Positions 3,024-48,027 of a stretch of 57,869 nt of DNA are shown piece by piece (the first letter of the stretch is position 1; every line of letters begins with the position of its first letter). The notes below the pieces were generated by a model. It worked only from the letters and a program-made list of their open reading frames with translations. It was not told the DNA's origin and made no database searches. Where the stretch lies: the NCBI GenBank assembly GCA_040384865.1, contig JAZKIM010000004.1, positions 16,105-73,973 of the forward strand. The letters are read 5' to 3'. This stretch comes from Patescibacteria group bacterium. GTDB taxonomy: Bacteria; Patescibacteriota; Minisyncoccia; Phycocordibacterales; CAIZLB01. A program made the translations under genes and the position numbers.

Positions 3024-5423
3024 TTATATCTGTGCGTTCTCAACTTTACTAATCAGAAGTGAAAGGTGAAGGGCACGTGCTTTGTCTTCAGTAGATCCCT
3101 TTTCAAGAGCATTAAGTTTATCTTTAAGTGTGTTAACAATAAAATCTTTAGTTTCATCTCCATTCTTTGATCCGAGTTTTCCTCTGTTAACGATTTTCTC
3201 TAGGGTCTTTTGAAAATTGGTGTATTGCCCGCTTGTCTTTAGGTTAATCTCACCAACGGCCTTGTCGAGCTCTCTTTTTGCCGTCTCCTCACCTTCTTTG
3301 TCTATTTCTTTCTGAACGTCTGTAGCCTCAGTATCGTTGAGATATGAGAAAGAAAGATTCTCATTGCGGAGGTGGTTTATCTTGGTGAGCATGTCTTGAT
3401 CACTGTCGATTGCTCCTAAACCTTTTGTTTTGTCGGCCAACATCTTATTGATTCTTTCTCGAACCTTTGTTTGCGCTACTGCCTGAATTTCTTTTGCGTA
3501 AGCTGAGTTCTGCAAGATGCTCGATCTTATCCAATTATTGCGATTTTCAATATCATCCTTTTGTTGTTTCAGATCCCCCAACTCTTTGTCTACGTCTTTT
3601 GTTGTTCCTGCGGCTAGGGCAATTCTCTCGCCATCACTGGTGAGTTTTGTTATTTCTTCTTCTAGTTTTGTCTTTGCTGTTGCTTCGCTCCAATATCGTT
3701 CCGTAAGGCGTCGATAGAAATTAAAGAAATTATACTTATTGTCCTTTTTCTCGTTCAAGAACTTAGCAGCACCTTCTTCGGAGATGGCTGTTTCGTATTC
3801 CTGCTTTTGTTTTGTAACGAATTCCTTGATCTGAACTTCCCTTTTCTTGGTCAGCTCGGCAATTTTCTTTTCTTTTTCGACAATTTCTTTCTGGTCTTTT
3901 CGCACCTGTTCAAGCTGTTCGATGATTTCGGCAATAGCCTCTGGGTTTTCTACTCGATTATCAATCAAAAACTTCTCTATTGAATCAAAATCTTTATCTT
4001 CATAATCAATGATTCCCTTAGCATCCTCTTTAAAAAGCTTCTTCAGGTCAACTTTGAAGCTTTCTAGTTTTTTGTATGTTTCAAAAAGTTCCTTTCCAGG
4101 CGAGTCCTCTTTTTCAAGACTGCTTCGCAAGTCTTCGGCACTCATGCCTCTTTTAGCAGCTACTTCCGCTGCATATTCTGCGAAACCGGCTTCATCAAGG
4201 GCTTTTTCAGCAAAACTTTTTTCAGGAGTTGTCATATTTGTTGCTCCTGATTGTACGCTCGGCTGCACGTTGTGTCCAGACTGCGGTGTTGGTGTTTGAG
4301 GTCCTGCCGGGGTTGGTGGGGGTGTTGTGCTCGTTGATGCCGCCGCAGGTGCTTGAGGTGTAACTATCGGGGGTGTTTTTAGAGCCTCGTTCAATATTTT
4401 CCATAGTTTTTCTACATGTAGTTCTTTTACTGCTATGGTTTTTTCAATAAAGGCCCGGTTTGTTGCAGATTTAAGATTCAGCCCCCGACGAAGACCATCT
4501 ATGGTTTCCAGAAGATCTGCAATGTGGTTTTTAATGAGGGCAATGATTTTTCTGTCTCTCCAGCCAGACTTACTTTCGCGAAGACGAGTGTCGAGATTAA
4601 TAGAGGGAAATTGGTTTTTGTATTGAAACGGGCTGTCAGAATCAGCCAATCCTTTTATCTCACCAAGTGCTGTAATAATCTCTTGTCTGACAGCAACCTC
4701 TTTCTCAGTAAGTTTTCTGTCGGCTTCTGACAAATCAGTTCGGGTGAGTTTTTGCTGTAAGTCTGCAACTTCTTGGGTAAATATTGCTATGTCTTCTGTA
4801 AGATGCCCTATGTACTTGGTATTCTCCTTTTTTAGAAATTCGGGTGTTTTGGGTATGTTTGCAGGCGGAGGTGGTGTGATGAGGGGGCTTTTAGGAGGAG
4901 TTTGCTTTTTAGGGGTTGGTGACGGTGTGGGTGTTGCTGCTGGATCCTGAGCCTCAGCTGCTTGTTTAAAAGCTTCCTCTAACGCAGAGTTTTCGCCAAC
5001 GGGATCTACTTTTTTAGGTTTATCTTTGCCCTTTATCTCCTTCTTTGGTTTGTCTTTTTTTCCTCCTTTGTCTGTTTTTGCTTCAGCATCTCTCTCGCGG
5101 ATAGCTTTTTGAATCTCCGGGATCTTTTCTGTTAAAAGTTGAATTCTTTCTTTCAACTCCTCCAGTTTTTTTGGAGTTCTTTCTATAAAATCTAAAGATA
5201 GTCGTAGTGTGTTCTTTGCTAGGTTGTATGCCTCTAGCTCGGTAGGTTCCTCAGGAACACCGCTGGCTACAAATTCCTCGATTTTTGTTAGATATGCTTT
5301 GTTCCGCAACAGATCTCCTGTTAGCTTGTCGAATTCCTTTCGTGCTTGAATTAGCTCGTCTCTTGAACGAATTAGTTCTTGATCAATACTTTCTGTTTCC
5401 GGTAGTGCTTCCGAAGGATCCAT
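3024..5423 (-). CDS. hypothetical large coiled-coil protein with proline/threonine-rich low-complexity linkers
   Basis: 799-aa ORF. Long E/K/L-rich heptad-like stretches are interrupted by PTPSPTPKKQTPPKSPLITPPPPANIPKTP and TPPIVTPQAPAAASTSTTPPPTPAGPQTPTPQ. No signal peptide or TM helix is evident. The antisense ORFs look like shadows. Confidence 0.75.
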   Translation of the reverse strand: MDPSEALPETESIDQELIRSRDELIQARKEFDKLTGDLLRNKAYLTKIEEFVASGVPEEPTELEAYNLAKNTLRLSLDFIERTPKKLEELKERIQLLTEKIPEIQKAIRERDAEAKTDKGGKKDKPKKEIKGKDKPKKVDPVGENSALEEAFKQAAEAQDPAATPTPSPTPKKQTPPKSPLITPPPPANIPKTPEFLKKENTKYIGHLTEDIAIFTQEVADLQQKLTRTDLSEADRKLTEKEVAVRQEIITALGEIKGLADSDSPFQYKNQFPSINLDTRLRESKSGWRDRKIIALIKNHIADLLETIDGLRRGLNLKSATNRAFIEKTIAVKELHVEKLWKILNEALKTPPIVTPQAPAAASTSTTPPPTPAGPQTPTPQSGHNVQPSVQSGATNMTTPEKSFAEKALDEAGFAEYAAEVAAKRGMSAEDLRSSLEKEDSPGKELFETYKKLESFKVDLKKLFKEDAKGIIDYEDKDFDSIEKFLIDNRVENPEAIAEIIEQLEQVRKDQKEIVEKEKKIAELTKKREVQIKEFVTKQKQEYETAISEEGAAKFLNEKKDNKYNFFNFYRRLTERYWSEATAKTKLEEEITKLTSDGERIALAAGTTKDVDKELGDLKQQKDDIENRNNWIRSSILQNSAYAKEIQAVAQTKVRERINKMLADKTKGLGAIDSDQDMLTKINHLRNENLSFSYLNDTEATDVQKEIDKEGEETAKRELDKAVGEINLKTSGQYTNFQKTLEKIVNRGKLGSKNGDETKDFIVNTLKDKLNALEKGSTEDKARALHLSLLISKVENAQI

Positions 5424-13312: not shown

Positions 13313-13372
13313 GTCTTTTAGGTGTTAAATAGAAAGAATGTAATTACCCTTCGCTCTTGATATACTTCCCTT

Positions 13373-40884: not shown

Positions 40885-42609
40885 ATGGCAAATTACTCCG
40901 TTCGACCCTGGGAGGGTGACAGTCTTCTCGATCACCTCCTGTTTCATCGGGGAATTACTGACCCGACGGAGCGAGAGGCTTTTCTTTCTCCTGATTATGA
41001 AAAGGGAATTCATGACCCGATGATGTTTGCGGATATTAAGCCTGCTATTAAGCGAATCCGTAAGGCGATTAAGGATGGCGAACGAATAGCAATTTTTAGT
41101 GATTTTGATGCAGATGGTCTTCCGGGCGCTACTATTCTCCACGATTTCTTTAAGAAGATTTCATATTTAAATTTTGAAAACTATATTCCACATCGCCACC
41201 TTGAAGGATTTGGTTTGAACAATGAGGCTATTGATAAGATGCATGATCGTGGTACGAATCTCATCATTACCATAGATTGCGGTATCACTGACGTTGAGAA
41301 AGTTGATTACGCAAACTCACTCGGTATTGATGTAATTATTACTGATCACCATCTGCCGGGTGTCCAATTGCCGAAGGCGCTTGCTGTTATCGATCCAAAA
41401 CGAGAAGACTGCAAGTATGCGGAAAAGATGCTGTGTGGTTCGGGTGTAATATTTAAAGTGATTCAAGCCTTGTTGATCGATGACCGTTCTCGGTCAGAAA
41501 AAGATCAGATGTTTAGCGCTGCAAAAATTGGTTGGGAAAAATGGCTCTTGGATATGGTTGGTCTTGCAACTCTTTCAGATATGGTGCCACTTCGTGGCGA
41601 GAATCGGGTGTTTGCACATTTTGGTCTTCGTGTTTTACGAAAGAGTCCACGTCTCGGTATCATGAAGCTTTTACATTCACTTGGTGTGAAGCAGGAGACT
41701 TTAGTCGAAGATGATATTGGTTTTTTAATCACTCCACGCATTAATGCTGCGTCTCGAATGGCTGATCCAGTGGACGCATTTAAGATGCTGACAGCCGCTA
41801 CAGACGAAGAGGCAGATATTGCAGTGCGACATTTGAATAAACTGAATGATGAAAGAAAAGGCACGGTGGCAGCTATGATAAAGGAAATAAAAAAGAAGGT
41901 TGAAGAGCGTAGTCTCCAAGATCGGCCTGTGCTTGCTCTCGGCAACCCTAATTGGAAGCCTGCTTTACTTGGCCTTGCGGCTACTTCACTTGTAAGAGAC
42001 TATGGCCGTCCTGTGTTTTTATGGGGAAGAGATGAGAATGGAGTGCTCAAAGGGTCGTGTCGTTCTGATGGCGCGGCGGATATTGTTGAGCTCATGCGCT
42101 CGCTCGACCCAAAGATATTCATTGATAAAGGTGGGCATAAAATGGCCGGCGGCTTTTCTTTGTCAAATGAGTATGTTCATTTATTTGCCGATGCACTTTG
42201 CGAGAGTTATGCTGCTGTTGCGGCACAGCAGAAGGCTAATATTGAGGCGGGAATTATTATTGAAACATTTGTTGATGCCGTGCTTGATCCTCAAGATATT
42301 ACCTGGGAGACATATTCTCATATTGAAAAGCTCGCTCCTTTTGGTGAGGCAAACCCAAAACCTCTTTTTATGATCAAACAGGCCCCTCTTACTGGCATCA
42401 AAATGTTTGGTAAAACAGGAAATCATCTGGAAGTGAATTTTAGCGGCGCTCGTGGTAAGAAGGTTTCTGCCATACAGTTCTTTTGCGAGCCAACGGAAAA
42501 GTTGAATGCTTTGAAGGCAGGTGACGCTGTCAGTTTAGTAGTTACTATGGAAAAATCTGTATTTAGAAATTTCCCGGAGCTTCGATTAAGGATTGTTGAT
42601 ATACTGTAA
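40885..42609 (+). CDS. recJ: single-stranded-DNA-specific exonuclease RecJ
   Basis: DHH motifs IAIFSDFDADGLPG, TIDCGI and IITDHH. DHHA1 motif GGHKMAGGFS. Confidence 0.92.
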   Translation: MANYSVRPWEGDSLLDHLLFHRGITDPTEREAFLSPDYEKGIHDPMMFADIKPAIKRIRKAIKDGERIAIFSDFDADGLPGATILHDFFKKISYLNFENYIPHRHLEGFGLNNEAIDKMHDRGTNLIITIDCGITDVEKVDYANSLGIDVIITDHHLPGVQLPKALAVIDPKREDCKYAEKMLCGSGVIFKVIQALLIDDRSRSEKDQMFSAAKIGWEKWLLDMVGLATLSDMVPLRGENRVFAHFGLRVLRKSPRLGIMKLLHSLGVKQETLVEDDIGFLITPRINAASRMADPVDAFKMLTAATDEEADIAVRHLNKLNDERKGTVAAMIKEIKKKVEERSLQDRPVLALGNPNWKPALLGLAATSLVRDYGRPVFLWGRDENGVLKGSCRSDGAADIVELMRSLDPKIFIDKGGHKMAGGFSLSNEYVHLFADALCESYAAVAAQQKANIEAGIIIETFVDAVLDPQDITWETYSHIEKLAPFGEANPKPLFMIKQAPLTGIKMFGKTGNHLEVNFSGARGKKVSAIQFFCEPTEKLNALKAGDAVSLVVTMEKSVFRNFPELRLRIVDIL

Positions 42610-42620
42610 TCCAACTATTT

Positions 42621-43391
42621 ATGAATAGACAATCATCAAAAAAACTAAACAGCGAATTAAAACAAGTCATACTTTTTACTGACGGCTCATCTAGAGGTAA
42701 TCCGGGCCCTGGTGGATGGGGATCTGTGATGGTTTATCCCGATTCCCATGGAATTTTGAAGGTTGATGAATTGGGAGGTCGGGAGAAGGTCACTACCAAT
42801 AACCGCATGGAGATAAGTGCGGTTGCTTTTGGTCTTATGCACATTGATGGTTTTTATGAAAACTTGGGTGAAGTTTTATTTATTATCTACACAGATTCAA
42901 GTTATGTTCTTAATGGAGCTACTAAATGGATTCATGGTTGGAAAAGGAACAATTGGATATCGAGTACAAAAGAGCCAGTAAAGAATCAAGATCTTTGGGA
43001 GGAGTTATCTTTGGCTATTGAAGGTAAGAATATAGAATGGCGGTTGGTTCCGGGTCATGCCGGGGTTCCTGGCAATGAACGATGTGATGTTATTGCTACC
43101 TCTTTTGCTGATAGTAGCCCCGTTGATCTATATAAGGGTCCCATCTCGAAATATTTATTGAAAGATATATTGGATGTTTTGGATACCAATCACGCCGATA
43201 TTCCCCGAAATCCAAATAAAAAGTCTTCCTCAAAAGCATATTCATATATAAGTATGGTGGACGGGGATGTACAAACACACGCCACTTGGGTTGAGTGTGA
43301 AGCACGAGTAAAAGGTAAAAGTGGTGCAAGATTCAAGAAGTCGAGTTCTCCCCAAGATGAAGCAGAAATCATTAGACAATTTTCTGTATAG
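42621..43391 (+). CDS. rnhA: ribonuclease HI with a C-terminal hybrid-binding (viroplasmin-like) domain
   Basis: RNase H core: LFTDGSSRGNPGPGGWG...TNNRMEISA...IYTDSSYV...PGHAGVPGNERCDVIA. The C-terminus YSYISMVDGDVQTHATWVECEARVKGKSGARFKKSSSPQDEAEIIRQF fits the fY.V..G...G...tW.EC...V.g...ArFKKF....EA pattern of the HBD. Confidence 0.85.
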   Translation: MNRQSSKKLNSELKQVILFTDGSSRGNPGPGGWGSVMVYPDSHGILKVDELGGREKVTTNNRMEISAVAFGLMHIDGFYENLGEVLFIIYTDSSYVLNGATKWIHGWKRNNWISSTKEPVKNQDLWEELSLAIEGKNIEWRLVPGHAGVPGNERCDVIATSFADSSPVDLYKGPISKYLLKDILDVLDTNHADIPRNPNKKSSSKAYSYISMVDGDVQTHATWVECEARVKGKSGARFKKSSSPQDEAEIIRQFSV

Positions 43392-43556
43392 GTTTACTAT
43401 TTAAGTGAACAACACTCAGTAAAGACGCGTTCGATATTGCACACACAAGTCGAATTTCTATTTTAAAAACAGGTTAGAAATTCTCTCAAAAATTTCTGTA
43501 AAGTTTCTAGTAATCTTTAAGATTTTTTGATGGCCAATTAAGGCCTGGTTAGTAGG

Positions 43557-44969
43557 ATGGTAAGAGTGAAAAAGATTGAGATAGCGATCATTGTGATTGT
43601 GGTGATCGTCTGTTTTTTCAGATTTTTCACAAAGGTACGTGAAGATTTATTTCTTGTGCCTTGGAACGACAAGAAGGTTTCAGTTGAAGGGTTGGTAATT
43701 GAAGAGCCGGAAGATCGAGCGAATGGAACTCGCGTACTATTAAGAGTTTCAAAAATTTCTTTAGCAAGCAGTACGAGCTTTGCAAACAATGATTCATTTG
43801 TCTTGTCGACGGTCCGCACCTCACTCGATCTCAAATATGGGGATGTGGTAGTGATAAGTGGAACACTTGAAAAGCCTGAAGTAATCGTCGGCGAAGACGG
43901 TCGTTCTTTTGATTACCCTCATTACTTAGGGAAGAGCGGAATCTATTATTTGCTCAAAGGGATTGATATATCACGCACATCACAACATCAGGGAAATCGA
44001 ATAAAAGAATTTCTTCTCGACGTGAAGAAATCTTTCGTCGATAGCATCAATTCAGCACTCCCGGAGCCGCACTCGCTTTTGGCGAGCGGTTTGGTGGTGG
44101 CCGGAAAAGGAGCATTAAGTGACGATCTTCAAGAACAATTCAAGCGAGTTGGTTTGATTCACATCGTCGTACTTTCTGGATCGAATGTAACTATCATTGC
44201 AGAGGCGATTATTAAAACACTCTCATTTCTGCCGAGATTTGTCGGAGCTGTAGGAGGTATATTTGGAATCATTGCTTTCACTGTAATAGCTGGAGCAAGT
44301 GCGACTATTGTACGATCAGCCGTGATGTCTATCATTGCAGTCATTGGAAATGTTTTTGGTCGGCAAGGAGATGCGCTCCGCGCACTCATCATTGCCGCGT
44401 GCGGCATGTCTCTTTTGAATCCAGATATTGTCCTTTACGATCCGTCCTTTCAGTTGAGTTTTACCGGAACCCTTGGATTAATCTTGCTGGGTAATATCAC
44501 AGATAAATGGTTTTGCTGGATTCCTGATTGGGGAGGTTTGCGTACAATCATTTCAGCTTCGGTCGCAAGTCAGATTAGTATCACCCCGATGATACTTCAC
44601 ATGTCTGGTATGTATTCATTTGTCTCACTTGTCGTCAACATTCTAGTACTACCCCTTCTTCCTCTCACTATGCTCGTGGTGTTTCTAACTGGGTGCATGA
44701 GTTTCATTGCGCAAATATTATCAATTCCATTCTCGATTGTTTCATACAGCTTGCTTCAGTATGAGCTTTGGATTGTTGACTTGTTTTCTGGTTGGAATTT
44801 TGCAGCCGTTACCATTCCTACGTTGACCTGGCTCGCTGTCTTTGAAATCTATGGCGCGTATGTCCTCATATTTATTGTCTATCGAATATACAAAAAGTCT
44901 CATCCAATTAAGGACGAGACTCTTGTGAAACAACTTCAGCAGCTCGGTAAGAATTCGGAGAGGGGTTAG
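43557..44969 (+). CDS. comEC: ComEC/Rec2 DNA-uptake channel, N-terminal part (OB/DUF4131-like plus polytopic competence domain)
   Basis: 470 aa. An N-terminal TM helix and soluble OB-like segment are followed by many TM helices, with LASGLVVAGKGALS...VGLIHIVVLSGSNV... typical of the Competence domain. Confidence 0.8.
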   Translation: MVRVKKIEIAIIVIVVIVCFFRFFTKVREDLFLVPWNDKKVSVEGLVIEEPEDRANGTRVLLRVSKISLASSTSFANNDSFVLSTVRTSLDLKYGDVVVISGTLEKPEVIVGEDGRSFDYPHYLGKSGIYYLLKGIDISRTSQHQGNRIKEFLLDVKKSFVDSINSALPEPHSLLASGLVVAGKGALSDDLQEQFKRVGLIHIVVLSGSNVTIIAEAIIKTLSFLPRFVGAVGGIFGIIAFTVIAGASATIVRSAVMSIIAVIGNVFGRQGDALRALIIAACGMSLLNPDIVLYDPSFQLSFTGTLGLILLGNITDKWFCWIPDWGGLRTIISASVASQISITPMILHMSGMYSFVSLVVNILVLPLLPLTMLVVFLTGCMSFIAQILSIPFSIVSYSLLQYELWIVDLFSGWNFAAVTIPTLTWLAVFEIYGAYVLIFIVYRIYKKSHPIKDETLVKQLQQLGKNSERG

Positions 44970-45559
44970 GAGAGATATGATGCGAAACGCTCCTCAAGTT
45001 TCTTTCCGTTGATGTTCTTGAAAAATGCATCCACATACTTTTTCTTTTCGGACGGAACATAATCAAGCATGTATGAATGCTCCCACATGTCGAGAGCGAT
45101 TACGACCTTGAGGCCAGTGAGATGCCCGAGGTGTTGTTCATCCACCCAAGCATTTAAAAGTCTTTTTGTGGTTTCGTCATAGTACATGATTGCCCAGCCG
45201 ATACCTCGAGTCATTGCGATGGCTTTGAATCGAGTGATTGCAGCATCGAGATTGCCCCATTCAGCCGCAATTGCCGCGCTTAGTTTTCCATCAGAAAAAA
45301 TATCGGACGCACCACCTTCAAATTGTTCGAAATAGTATTCGTGGTTTCGCATGCCGTCGAATTCAAAACCAAATCGTCGCTGTAATTCGCCAAGAACGTA
45401 AGCGTTTTTTTCAGAGTCAGCAGAATATTCTGCGATTTTGTCGACGATGAGATTGGCGTGCTTAACGTAGCCAGCATAGAGCTTGAGGTGTTCTTCTATA
45501 GATTTCGACGAGATACCATCGAGCGTTCCGATATCGAACTTTCTTTCGGTGAATGACAT
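44966..45559 (-). CDS. Fe/Mn superoxide dismutase family protein (divergent N-terminus)
   Basis: All four metal-ligand contexts are retained: IEEH, GMRNHEYYF and LDMWEHSYMLDY (D..WEH). It lacks the usual HHxKHH string. Confidence 0.75.
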   Translation of the reverse strand: MSFTERKFDIGTLDGISSKSIEEHLKLYAGYVKHANLIVDKIAEYSADSEKNAYVLGELQRRFGFEFDGMRNHEYYFEQFEGGASDIFSDGKLSAAIAAEWGNLDAAITRFKAIAMTRGIGWAIMYYDETTKRLLNAWVDEQHLGHLTGLKVVIALDMWEHSYMLDYVPSEKKKYVDAFFKNINGKKLEERFASYLS

Positions 45560-46549
45560 ATGATTACAAAATTAATTTTTTCCAATAATGATTCTGAAAC
45601 TCCGCTACATCACTTGTTTCGACAAGTATGGGGAGTGATAACGGGTCTAGTATATCACGCGCTCGCGCCGCTCGTTTGTATCATTTTATCCACGACAGTT
45701 TTGATGTTTGAAGTATATACATTTGCATATGAAGAGAAGATGAATGATATTGGTGGCTGGTCGGCAAAACCACTGGTAGTTTCGTTTTTGGATATTGATC
45801 AGGGAGACGCAACTCTCATTCGGGCACCAGGCGGTCAAACAATTCTTATTGATGCTGGACAATCAAATAGTCCTATCCTTTCAGAGATCGGAGCGTCATT
45901 GCCTTTTTATAAACATCATATCGACATGATTATAGCTACGCACCCTGATGCCGATCATATCGGTGGACTTCCAAAAGTTGTAGAGAGATACAGTCCTGAA
46001 GTTTTATTGGAGTCAGGAGTACATGCCAATACTTACATTGATCAATCACTGCAAAATATTGTTTCAGAGAAAAAGATACAAGTGCTTCGTGCAAGAAAGG
46101 GAATGACAATTAAATTTGGTGCCAAAGATTTAAAACACATTCAACTGACATTACAGATCTTATTCCCTGATCGAAACGTTGATGACTGGATATCAAAAAC
46201 AAATGACGCATCAATTGTTGCACGATTAAGTTTCGGTAGAACATCATTCATACTTACTGGTGATTCGCCGATTGATATTGAACAGCATTTGGCGGTAACC
46301 GGCGCACTTGGCCATGTAGATATATTAAAGGTTGGACACCATGGTTCGCGCACCTCTACTTCTGAAGAATTTGTTAAAGCACTTACTCCTTCGTTTGCGG
46401 TTATCTCCGTCGGAAAGAAAAACAGATATGGCCATCCTCATCAGGAGGTGCTTCGTGTGTTGGAGAAAAACAAGGTGAAGGTTTTGAGGACTGATGAACA
46501 AGGAAGAATTACGATTGAGAGTGATGGAGAAAAAATTATAGTAGATTAG
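45560..46549 (+). CDS. ComEC C-terminal-type metallo-beta-lactamase domain protein with N-terminal TM anchor
   Basis: FLDIDQGDATLIRAPGGQTILIDAG, ATHPDADHIGGL, LTGDS and VGHHGSRTS are the MBL motifs, as in the nuclease domain of ComEC. Confidence 0.85.
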   Translation: MITKLIFSNNDSETPLHHLFRQVWGVITGLVYHALAPLVCIILSTTVLMFEVYTFAYEEKMNDIGGWSAKPLVVSFLDIDQGDATLIRAPGGQTILIDAGQSNSPILSEIGASLPFYKHHIDMIIATHPDADHIGGLPKVVERYSPEVLLESGVHANTYIDQSLQNIVSEKKIQVLRARKGMTIKFGAKDLKHIQLTLQILFPDRNVDDWISKTNDASIVARLSFGRTSFILTGDSPIDIEQHLAVTGALGHVDILKVGHHGSRTSTSEEFVKALTPSFAVISVGKKNRYGHPHQEVLRVLEKNKVKVLRTDEQGRITIESDGEKIIVD

Positions 46550-46567
46550 TTGTTAATCGTTTTTTAA

Positions 46568-46597
46568 ACACCATGACCTTTTGGAGGTTCATGGTGT
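46568..46597. terminator. bidirectional hairpin between convergent genes
   Basis: acaccatga (46568-46576) pairs with tcatggtgt (46589-46597). Confidence 0.65.
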
Positions 46598-46618
46598 AAT
46601 CTTTTCTGAATTTAAGAT

Positions 46619-46861
46619 TTAGATAATCCCAGCTTTCTTTAAAGTGGCGAAAGCCCCGTTCTTCTGGATAGTTTTAATAGCTTTAGTTGAAATTGTGAGA
46701 GTGATGGTTTTTTTTAATTCAGGAATATACACCTTCTTTTTCTGAAGGTTTGGATACTTTCGAACCATACCTGTAGGGTTGAACTGAGTAGCACGAGTAC
46801 GGTTTGAGTAACCGCCTCCTCGGAGTGAACCTTTCTTAGTGATTGCGCATACTTTTGCCAT
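46619..46861 (-). CDS. rpmB: 50S ribosomal protein L28
   Basis: MAKVCAITKKGSLRGGGYSNRTRATQFNPTGMVRKYPNLQKKKVY...TLTISTKAIKTIQKNG follows the L28 pattern (CxxTGK..., SH/N..., PNLQ). ATG at 46861. Confidence 0.85.
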   Translation of the reverse strand: MAKVCAITKKGSLRGGGYSNRTRATQFNPTGMVRKYPNLQKKKVYIPELKKTITLTISTKAIKTIQKNGAFATLKKAGII

Positions 46862-46925
46862 GTGTTCCAACATGCTATCATATTGTTTACGAAACGCAAC
46901 TCTAAATTAATTTCCAACCAACCCA

Positions 46926-47534
46926 ATGACTGTTATTTTTTCAATCGCAATATTGGTCATTTCCATCGTTGTTCATGAGGTATCCCATGGTATAGCGGCT
47001 CTTTGGCAGGGTGATCCTACTTCTAAATATGCGGGCCGTCTCACTCTGAACCCTCTTAAACATATTGATCCAATAGGTTCTGTTCTTATTCCTGTTATTT
47101 GTGCCTTGCTTCCGGGGGGTATTATGTTTGGTTGGGCAAAGCCGGTGCCTATAAATCCATATAACTTTAGAAACCCTCGATTAGGAGAGGCTATTGTTTC
47201 TTTTGCCGGTCCGCTCTCAAATATTACCATTGCCCTTATTTTTGGGCTTATCTTACGCTTTTATATAGGGGTTTTGCCAGAGGCAACTACCGCCATTTTG
47301 GCAATCACTGTTATAACCAATCTCGTTCTAGCTATTTTCAATCTTGTTCCGGTACCACCCCTCGATGGTTCTAAGATCCTTCTATCCATCCTTCCCGATA
47401 GTATGGCTAATATAAAGGCTGTATTTGATCAGTACGGTATGTTTTTGGCTATTTTCTTCATATTCTTTCTCTGGCAGTACTTCACACCGCTCATATATAT
47501 AGCATTCGGTGCGATCACAGGTCTCTCTTTTTAG
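46926..47534 (+). CDS. M50 (site-2 protease family) membrane zinc metalloprotease
   Basis: HEVSHG (HExxH) lies in the first TM helix. NLVPVPPLDGSKIL is the second metal-ligand motif. The protein is polytopic. Confidence 0.85.
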   Translation: MTVIFSIAILVISIVVHEVSHGIAALWQGDPTSKYAGRLTLNPLKHIDPIGSVLIPVICALLPGGIMFGWAKPVPINPYNFRNPRLGEAIVSFAGPLSNITIALIFGLILRFYIGVLPEATTAILAITVITNLVLAIFNLVPVPPLDGSKILLSILPDSMANIKAVFDQYGMFLAIFFIFFLWQYFTPLIYIAFGAITGLSF

Positions 47535-47537
47535 TAT

Positions 47538-47566
47538 TTGCAATATATAGATATATATAGTAATCT
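47538..47566 (+). promoter_or_regulatory. candidate promoter of rpsL-rpsG
   Basis: TTGCAA, 17-nt spacer, TAATCT. It lies 45 nt upstream of the rpsL ATG. Confidence 0.5.
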
Positions 47567-47610
47567 AGCCCTACTGTATTTTTGTTTTCAAAAAGGCAGA
47601 AAAATAAGAA

Positions 47611-48027
47611 ATGCCAACATTAAATCAACTCATCAAGAAGAATCGTTCTAAAACGAAGCGAAAGAGTAAGGCCATTGCCCTCACTCGTGGTTTTAACGTT
47701 CTAAAGAACCGACCTATATTTTACAACTCTCCTTTTAAGCGAGGTGTATGTTCAAAGGTAACAACCAAAACTCCTCGAAAGCCTAACTCGGCTATTCGAA
47801 AGATTGCTCGAGTTCGACTTACAAACGGAATGGAGGTTACTGCGTACATTCCGGGTGAAGGTCACAATCTTCAGGAGCATTCAGTGGTACTCCTCCGAGG
47901 TGGACGAGTGAAAGATGTAGGTATTCGATATACTATTGTTCGAGGTAAGCTCGATACGGCTGGTGTCGAAAAGCGACGAAAGCAGCGATCAGCATATGGT
48001 ACAAAGCGACCGAAGGCTGCAAAGTAG
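47611..48027 (+). CDS. rpsL: 30S ribosomal protein S12
   Basis: [10 protein letters not shown]...[49 protein letters not shown] is canonical. Confidence 0.97.

Follow-up and report, generated by a model that had tools for sequence, protein, structure and literature searches.

Why should a superoxide dismutase (SOD) gene lie on the opposite strand between the two halves of the DNA-uptake protein ComEC, with no spacing on either side? This question is raised by a 57,869-nt stretch of DNA from a Patescibacteria group bacterium (GCA_040384865.1, contig JAZKIM010000004.1; the whole stretch is called the window here). Patescibacteria, also known as Candidate Phyla Radiation (CPR) bacteria, cannot synthesize nucleotides; imported DNA is thought to sustain them, which makes ComEC central to their biology, and CPR bacteria of this type are oxygen-sensitive as well as nucleotide-scavenging. 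The locus consists of three genes:

43557-44969, plus strand: comEC-N, 470 amino acids (aa), with one N-terminal transmembrane (TM) helix, an OB fold (DUF4131) and the competence channel domain through to TM10.
44966-45559, minus strand: sod, Fe/Mn superoxide dismutase family, 197 aa, assigned by Pfam and NCBIfam.
45560-46549, plus strand: gene for a ComEC-type metallo-beta-lactamase (MBL) nuclease with a predicted TM11 anchor, 329 aa when counted from the ATG at 45560.

We conclude, with a probability of roughly 0.8, that this arrangement is ancestral in a large Parcubacteria/Paceibacteria-type clade and packed to the limit in the window genome, and that it joins a split ComEC with an autonomous sod unit. 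The arrangement is real, ancient and compact, and it combines elements of known kinds: a split ComEC, an ordinary Fe/Mn SOD and possibly a noncontiguous operon.

The three open reading frames (ORFs) had been described in an earlier note on this DNA, and all of their coordinates were reproduced. The two tight junctions reported there can be read directly from the sequence. At 44966-44969 (TTAG) the comEC-N stop codon TAG shares bases with the sod stop codon TAA, and at 45557-45562 the start codons of sod and MBL abut back to back (CAT/ATG). An in-frame TGA at 45554-45556 bounds the MBL frame on its 5' side. Both junctions are spanned by independent contigs of a DNA run with no differences and no joints. 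In the source DNA run, the contig depth increases approximately 3-fold (from 8 to 25) and contigs break at 45176-45286, the most conserved part of sod; this stretch is probably common to related co-occurring populations.

The domain content of the two plus-strand products agrees with the proposal of the earlier note that they are halves of one ComEC. The comEC-N product matches the Competence domain (PF03772) at E 1.2e-38 over profile positions 1-266 of 270, and DUF4131 (PF13567), the N-terminal OB fold, at E 9.7e-13. The MBL product matches Lactamase_B at E 1.3e-12 and the ComEC equivalog model TIGR00361 at E 1.7e-41 over positions 443-663, the C-terminal third of the model. Both products score below the TIGR00361 equivalog cut-off of 190 bits (56 bits for comEC-N and 142 bits for MBL), and the full-length DCL architecture, with the nuclease on the channel polypeptide, is not found since the halves are separate ORFs. 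On the solved full-length ComEC of Neomoorella carbonis (30bt_A), aa 92-443 of ComEC-N align with residues 143-489 (E 2.9e-24) and aa 71-325 of the MBL protein align with residues 534-790 (E 2.4e-34). The MBL product also matches the isolated ComEC nuclease domain 9ic4 (E 2.4e-36). An AlphaFold2 model of the MBL product (pLDDT 86) has helices at 15-31 and 36-63 followed by the MBL fold, and its top Foldseek match is again 9ic4 (TM-score 0.83). The metal-binding residues H128, D130, D132, H133, D235, H260, H261 and H292 are invariant in 19 aligned MBL sequences.

Cryo-electron microscopy determined that ComEC has 11 TM helices with a short cytoplasmic helix between TM10 and TM11, and that the nuclease domain is periplasmic on a flexible linker, with TM11 peripheral and mobile (PMC13539106). 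Based on this topology, the 44 residues of 30bt_A that separate the two aligned parts correspond to the TM10-TM11 loop and TM11. The hydropathy of ComEC-N indicates a hydrophobic helix near its end (aa 423-444) followed by a basic tail, and that of the MBL protein indicates a short N-terminal segment followed by a hydrophobic helix (aa 34-52). This second helix defines the following feature:

45659-45730, plus strand: predicted TM anchor of the MBL protein, equivalent to ComEC TM11, codons 34-57; assigned from hydropathy, the model helix at 36-63, and hydrophobicity that is kept despite sequence variation.

By alignment, the break is placed in the cytoplasmic TM10-TM11 loop of ComEC, and TM11 goes with the nuclease half as its predicted anchor. 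The ComEC-N tail beyond TM10 (aa ~446-470) is variable in length and sequence, non-conserved, and missing from some close homologues. In the relatives, the shortest ComEC-N proteins (P0242 and P0244) stop 6 residues past TM10 and the shortest MBL protein (P0009) begins ~7 residues ahead of the anchor helix; these shortest-ended pieces add up to approximately the length of the fused linker. The comparison with full-length ComEC that the earlier note had suggested for the junction thus reveals no residues missing between the halves. ComEC would then be made as two polypeptides, a channel half containing the N-terminal TM helix, an OB fold and a competence domain through TM10, and a nuclease half containing a short cytoplasmic segment, the TM11 membrane anchor and an extracytoplasmic beta-lactamase-like nuclease. 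Both halves would keep the topology of the fused protein, and they presumably assemble non-covalently.

Full-length ComEC/Rec2 (DUF4131-Competence-Lactamase_B; N. carbonis 30bt and B. subtilis ComEC) has the same three domains, which align along its length, the same invariant nuclease metal-binding motifs (THPDADH and GHHGS), and an inferred topology with the OB fold and nuclease outside. The system described here differs in that there are two polypeptides, encoded with an opposite-strand gene between them, and in that one TM helix rather than three precedes the OB fold. Unfused ComEC has been described in CPR bacteria. In the portions of Meheust et al. 2019 that were available (PMC6744442), DUF4131 plus Competence without Lactamase_B, the 'DC-profile', is reported for nearly all CPR genomes, and the available portions of Pimentel & Zhang 2018 (PMC6299819) infer repeated gains and losses of the MBL domain. 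ComEC-N of the window likewise contains DUF4131 and Competence with no Lactamase_B. As far as these portions of the two accounts go, the MBL domain is absent or lost, whereas here a nuclease with a predicted TM11 anchor is encoded next door, and the protein is split rather than truncated. A description of a separate TM-anchored partner gene, of a split ComEC or of a nested sod in CPR bacteria was not found in open-access text.

Relatives of the locus were collected by a one-genome-per-species scan with the SOD protein, of which 80 loci were kept (given L numbers here), and eight window proteins were mapped on them by tblastn. The loci come from records labelled Parcubacteria, Paceibacterota, Nomura-, Taylor-, Zambryski- and Kaiserbacteria, and "Patescibacteria group"; it is on these labels that the window genome is taken to be of the Parcubacteria/Paceibacteria type. 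The order and orientation of the block recJ-rnhA-comEC-N> <sod MBL> <L28 M50> S12 (window 40885-48027) are kept in nearly all 80 loci, and recJ, rnhA and comEC could form one operon for DNA uptake and processing. The comEC-N, sod and MBL genes have the same order and orientation in 60 of the 73 informative species loci. The order is strictly canonical, with both neighbours at most 400 nt from sod, in 46 of the 80 loci; 14 further loci have the canonical order but contain an insertion, and contig ends truncate another 7. The comparison of comEC loci that the earlier note had called for therefore returned mostly split genes with sod between the halves. Look-ups of MBL homologues gave the identical gene order, in which 2, 29 and 18 nt separate sod from MBL; one of these loci is from the Parcubacteria genome GCA_001003005.1, which has been public since the first CPR surveys.

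The earlier note had also offered the idea that comEC was interrupted by the precise insertion of one gene, and a recent insertion of a sod cassette into a formerly fused gene does fit the local view, in which the ComEC halves are parted by exactly one gene without spacers. The relatives make it hardly credible. The arrangement is found in the 60 loci mentioned above at MBL identities down to ~30%, with sod at the same place. On a neighbour-joining tree of sod and comEC-N (rough, midpoint-rooted and with no outgroup), the canonical order occurs in every major branch on both sides of the midpoint root. Fused ComEC was not found among the best 120 homologues of either half: the best 120 ComEC-N homologues are 421-541 aa long and none has an MBL domain, and the best 120 MBL homologues are all stand-alone proteins of 236-321 aa. 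The repeats around sod, direct or inverted, are short and at chance level, and an invertible or mobile element at sod was rejected on the same grounds. Additionally, the split outlives the position of sod. In loci L015 and L053, which form one nested pair on the tree, comEC-N is directly followed by MBL and sod is convergent downstream, and the halves nevertheless remain two separate ORFs that overlap in different frames. The split of ComEC is therefore independent of the interposed sod. There is no MBL gene near sod in ten loci (L017, L019, L032, L034, L035, L057, L058, L060, L063 and L083), which are scattered over the tree; in two of these, L019 and L032, sod lies immediately after rpmB on the same strand and has retained its own extended -10 element.

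The gene between the halves appears from its sequence to encode a functional SOD. Its product matches Sod_Fe_C at E 3.9e-20, and its Sod_Fe_N score (20.9 bits) is under the cut-off of 27. The top match in the PDB is the Fe-SOD of Aquifex pyrophilus (1coj; E 1.8e-24), in which residues 15-199 align with aa 12-194, covering both the N-terminal hairpin domain and the C-terminal alpha/beta domain. The likeness to this closest solved enzyme and to Fe/Mn SODs in general includes the full-length alignment, the four metal ligands, the DxWEH motif and the active-site tyrosine (GYV). In 121 family members the ligands H24, D157 and H161 are invariant and H73 is present in 99%. The window SOD differs from these enzymes in that its N-terminal hairpin domain is divergent and the His-His after the first ligand is replaced (HLKL-YAGYV). 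Genes for SOD are common in Patescibacteria, and more so in oxic groundwater (PMC8672522).

Three elements on or around the minus strand suggest that sod is a transcription unit of its own:

45657-45649, minus strand: predicted sod promoter, extended -10 element TGATATACT, 89 nt ahead of the sod ATG; the reverse complement of MBL codons 30-33 (LVYH).
45638-45661, both strands: 24-nt block shared without a mismatch by the window and L004, its closest relative; no exact match in the 3-kb locus is longer, and the block spans the sod -10 element and the start-site region.
44921-44892, minus strand: predicted intrinsic terminator of sod with a 10-bp stem, a 6-nt loop and TTTT, -16.3 kcal/mol; it lies within comEC-N codons 446-455.

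The transcription start site of sod is predicted at ~45642, which would give a 5' untranslated region (UTR) of ~83 nt that runs antisense to codons 1-28 of MBL. Of 75 loci, 45 have an extended -10 element (TGnTATAAT or TGATATACT) in the 130 nt that precede the sod start, and ~0.9 loci would be expected from a background of 0.097 per kb. In the window the strict motif occurs 10 times, 7 or 8 of them 6-31 nt ahead of gene starts. This position identifies the motif as the promoter signature of the organism, with leaders that are short or absent. The sequence surrounding the 24-nt block is 53-61% identical between the window and L004, and L004 has an equivalent terminator hairpin at the matching offset. 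A sigma-70 -35/-10 consensus site at 45712-45683 on the minus strand was rejected as the conserved element, which is the extended -10 at 45657-45649. For sod, this predicted element bears out the expectation in the earlier note that promoters would lie within the coding sequence of a neighbour. sod would thus be an autonomous unit with its promoter embedded in the 5' codons of the nuclease gene and its terminator hairpin in the 3' tail of comEC-N.

Whether the sod promoter overlaps coding sequence depends on where the MBL protein starts. The public gene call (P0001, 281 aa) uses M49 at 45704. With this start, which the earlier note had named along with M60 as an internal Met that would speak against the layout, there would be a normal divergent intergenic region of 144 nt, the sod promoter would fall in non-coding DNA, and the MBL protein would be soluble and cytoplasmic. 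Such a start is very unlikely. M49 is within the hydrophobic helix aa 34-52 and would halve the conserved anchor. An N-terminal TM helix is kept in 16 of 18 aligned MBL homologues, with varying sequence, conserved hydrophobicity and a frame that is open in all, which is the pattern to be expected if a TM segment is translated. In ComEC the corresponding domain is periplasmic (PMC13539106), so an anchor or signal is needed. Two homologues, P0007 and P0015, also look N-terminally truncated by gene calling.

The start at the ATG 45560 is instead likely from the following comparison. Upstream of the anchor helix the window and its closest relative have F-[KR]-Q...ITGLVYHA in common, and the Lys-to-Arg replacement in this motif is conservative at the cost of several nucleotide changes. 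This conservation places the start upstream of codon 19, where the ATG at 45560 is the sole in-frame start; the relative has no start codon at the position that matches the TTG at 45614 of the window. The peptide motif beside the anchor is at least partly a shadow of the opposite-strand promoter, given the 24-nt identity around the sod -10 element. A Shine-Dalgarno word in front of the ATG (GGTGA, 7 nt upstream) was dropped as support, as words of at least 4 nt precede only 6 of 47 window genes and the random frequency is 0.21. These few Shine-Dalgarno sites, together with TGnTATAMT elements 6-31 nt before starts (e.g., at 13358, 22126, 27246, 31861, 38256 and 42597), imply mRNAs that are leaderless or have very short leaders.

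The absence of spacers at both junctions is the extreme end of a continuum and not an outlier. Among the relatives, 23 loci have comEC-N and sod ORFs that share up to 143 nt, and in the others the two ORFs mostly lie no more than ~160 nt apart; the distance between the sod start and the nearest candidate MBL start is often only 2-21 nt. Ordinary intergenic spacers, which the earlier note would have counted against its proposal, are not what the relatives show; the same three genes are separated by similarly tiny distances. Spacers of 31, 49 and 52 nt separate the window's other divergent pairs. The overlap with the sod stop codon is read as an ORF extension of this lineage because the ComEC-N tail is variable and absent in some close homologues; the tail would read through the sod terminator to the sod stop. 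At the other junction, the nuclease N-terminus would read back over the sod 5' UTR to the sod start, again as a lineage-specific extension. Of the divergent pairs, rpmB and the M50 protease gene (46873-46926) have the 52-nt spacer and the pair 51640-52182/52214-52996 has the 31-nt spacer. Extended -10-like motifs are present in the rpmB/M50 spacer region of 96-100% of the related loci.

How the nuclease gene is transcribed is less clear from the layout. In the 200 nt of plus strand that precede the MBL start at 45560, neither an extended -10 nor a hexamer with at least 5 of 6 matches was found. An extended -10 was likewise not found near the MBL start in the nearest relatives (L004-L008), and the strict motif was found for comEC-N itself in 0 of 66 loci scanned. 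The nearest recognisable plus-strand promoter upstream of both comEC-N and MBL is the following:

42597-42605, plus strand: extended -10 element TGATATACT, 16 nt ahead of the rnhA start.

The wider set of relatives gives a different result. A loose extended -10 is present near the MBL start in 37 of 65 related loci (57%, against 19% by chance), and in some clades back-to-back -10 boxes occupy a sod/MBL spacer of 14-18 nt; the nuclease gene therefore appears to have its own promoter in many species. In one clade (L029, L039, L045, L054 and L081; sod start at 4992-5001) a distance of 14-18 nt separates the start codons of sod and MBL, which lie around a near-palindrome such as CATGCTATAATATTAGCATG. 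A spacer of this type, with one -10 box per strand, suggests a minimal bidirectional promoter for two leaderless mRNAs. Transcription through sod from upstream should be possible, since the T-tract of the sod terminator is on the minus strand only and should let plus-strand transcription pass; terminator-like hits on the plus strand of this region are weak (6, against 3.0 +/- 1.9 by chance). The 3' end of the MBL transcript is probably marked by a hairpin, judged by its predicted fold:

46568-46597: hairpin with a T-rich stretch after it, in the 69 nt that separate the convergent MBL and rpmB (L28) genes; RNAfold -17.9 kcal/mol; it was not listed by the consensus terminator scan.

Searches of sequencing runs of any kind for the window locus returned DNA runs only, and those for the window sod, L039 and L001 returned no RNA runs. 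Exact-sequence look-ups with the window sod and with P0001 retrieved no recorded contig.

Two explanations of this layout have to be weighed against each other. It may be that there are simply three independent units in a compact syntenic block, with a non-consensus MBL promoter inside the sod coding sequence or 5' UTR and no regulatory meaning, and we consider the chance of this to be a little short of even. Conservation extends to all eight genes of the block from recJ to S12 and is not confined to these three, short and overlapping spacers are general in the window and the relatives, the MBL gene has its own -10-like element in many relatives, and the sod promoter is kept even where sod follows L28 without an MBL gene (L019 and L032). 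What this does not account for is that zero candidate MBL promoters can be identified in the window genome; moreover, convergent and overlapping transcription this dense will yield antisense overlap with or without a regulatory use.

A noncontiguous operon is a tentative alternative for the window genome and its nearest relatives, and it is compatible with an ancestral split ComEC and an autonomous sod, to which it would add a layer of regulation. In this case one mRNA, probably starting at 42597 (the rnhA promoter), would carry comEC-N and MBL and be antisense to all of sod; the DNA-uptake and sod transcripts would be fully complementary and could repress each other by collision or by degradation of the duplex. 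Known examples are menE-menC...ytkD of S. aureus and yhxD-as-comK-yhzC of B. subtilis, the latter a stress-driven antisense of comK (PMC11034616, PMC11633097). As in noncontiguous operons and excludons, co-directional linked genes are interrupted here by a single opposite-strand gene, with fully overlapping transcripts possible, and the flanking genes are halves of one machine. As in the B. subtilis case, a stress response would be set against competence. The missing plus-strand elements before MBL in the window and in L004-L008 fit such an operon, as does the missing strict motif of comEC-N in all 66 loci, when this motif marks most other transcription-unit starts in the window; the one-stranded sod terminator and the chance level of plus-strand terminators fit as well. 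However, a missing consensus match does not prove that a promoter is missing, and the loose -10 elements and back-to-back boxes of the relatives point to a separate downstream promoter in many of them. The class is defined by co-transcription and mutual repression, the present case is known from its gene layout, and the authors of the concept hold that computational prediction is impossible and that a transcriptome is required (PMC11034616). A wider form, in which a noncontiguous operon is conserved across the class, is improbable. Expression of the ComEC halves from one mRNA would then make the full antisense of sod, uptake and superoxide defence would be mutually exclusive, and the TM10-TM11 split would have been kept because it accommodates this switch. 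The coupling of oxidative stress to DNA uptake, which the earlier note had raised, is a hypothesis.

Several points weigh against the conclusion that the arrangement is ancestral with an autonomous sod unit. The sod terminator hairpin was found in just 10 of 42 loci scanned. The sod promoter, the sod terminator and the MBL start codon are predictions; for the last of these, overlap with the sod promoter region would persist at the alternative starts TTG 45614 and GTG 45635. The loci were chosen for their sod similarity, and the frequency of the arrangement applies to that sample and not to all CPR lineages. The physical assembly of the ComEC halves is presumed from homology.

In most of the sampled relatives, the nuclease of CPR ComEC is split off and not lost, as it is a separate protein, with a predicted TM11 anchor, encoded beside the channel gene. 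The functional reading of the "truncated" CPR ComEC in published surveys changes accordingly, as far as the available portions of these surveys describe it. A natural two-piece ComEC that is split at a peripheral and mobile helix may also aid biochemical reconstitution. The locus is a clear case of a predicted promoter conserved within the coding sequence of a neighbour, and it is a concrete candidate for antisense coupling of oxidative-stress defence and DNA uptake.

The window as a whole has 41% G+C, and ~81% of it is covered by 46 listed ORFs. It includes core genes of a small-genome bacterial type (recJ, rnhA, rpmB, the M50 protease gene, rpsL, rpsG and fusA). The stop codons of the 46 genes are TAA in 30, TAG in 14 and TGA in 2. 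An alternative genetic code with TGA as a sense codon was rejected because the conserved proteins are full length under table 11, and the rarity of TGA looks like a usage bias and not recoding. In the RNase H protein upstream of comEC-N (42621-43391, 256 aa), the RNase H1 hybrid-binding domain (Cauli_VI) is weakly matched (E 0.0034); the match is C-terminal (aa 222-243), and the usual place of this domain is the N-terminus.

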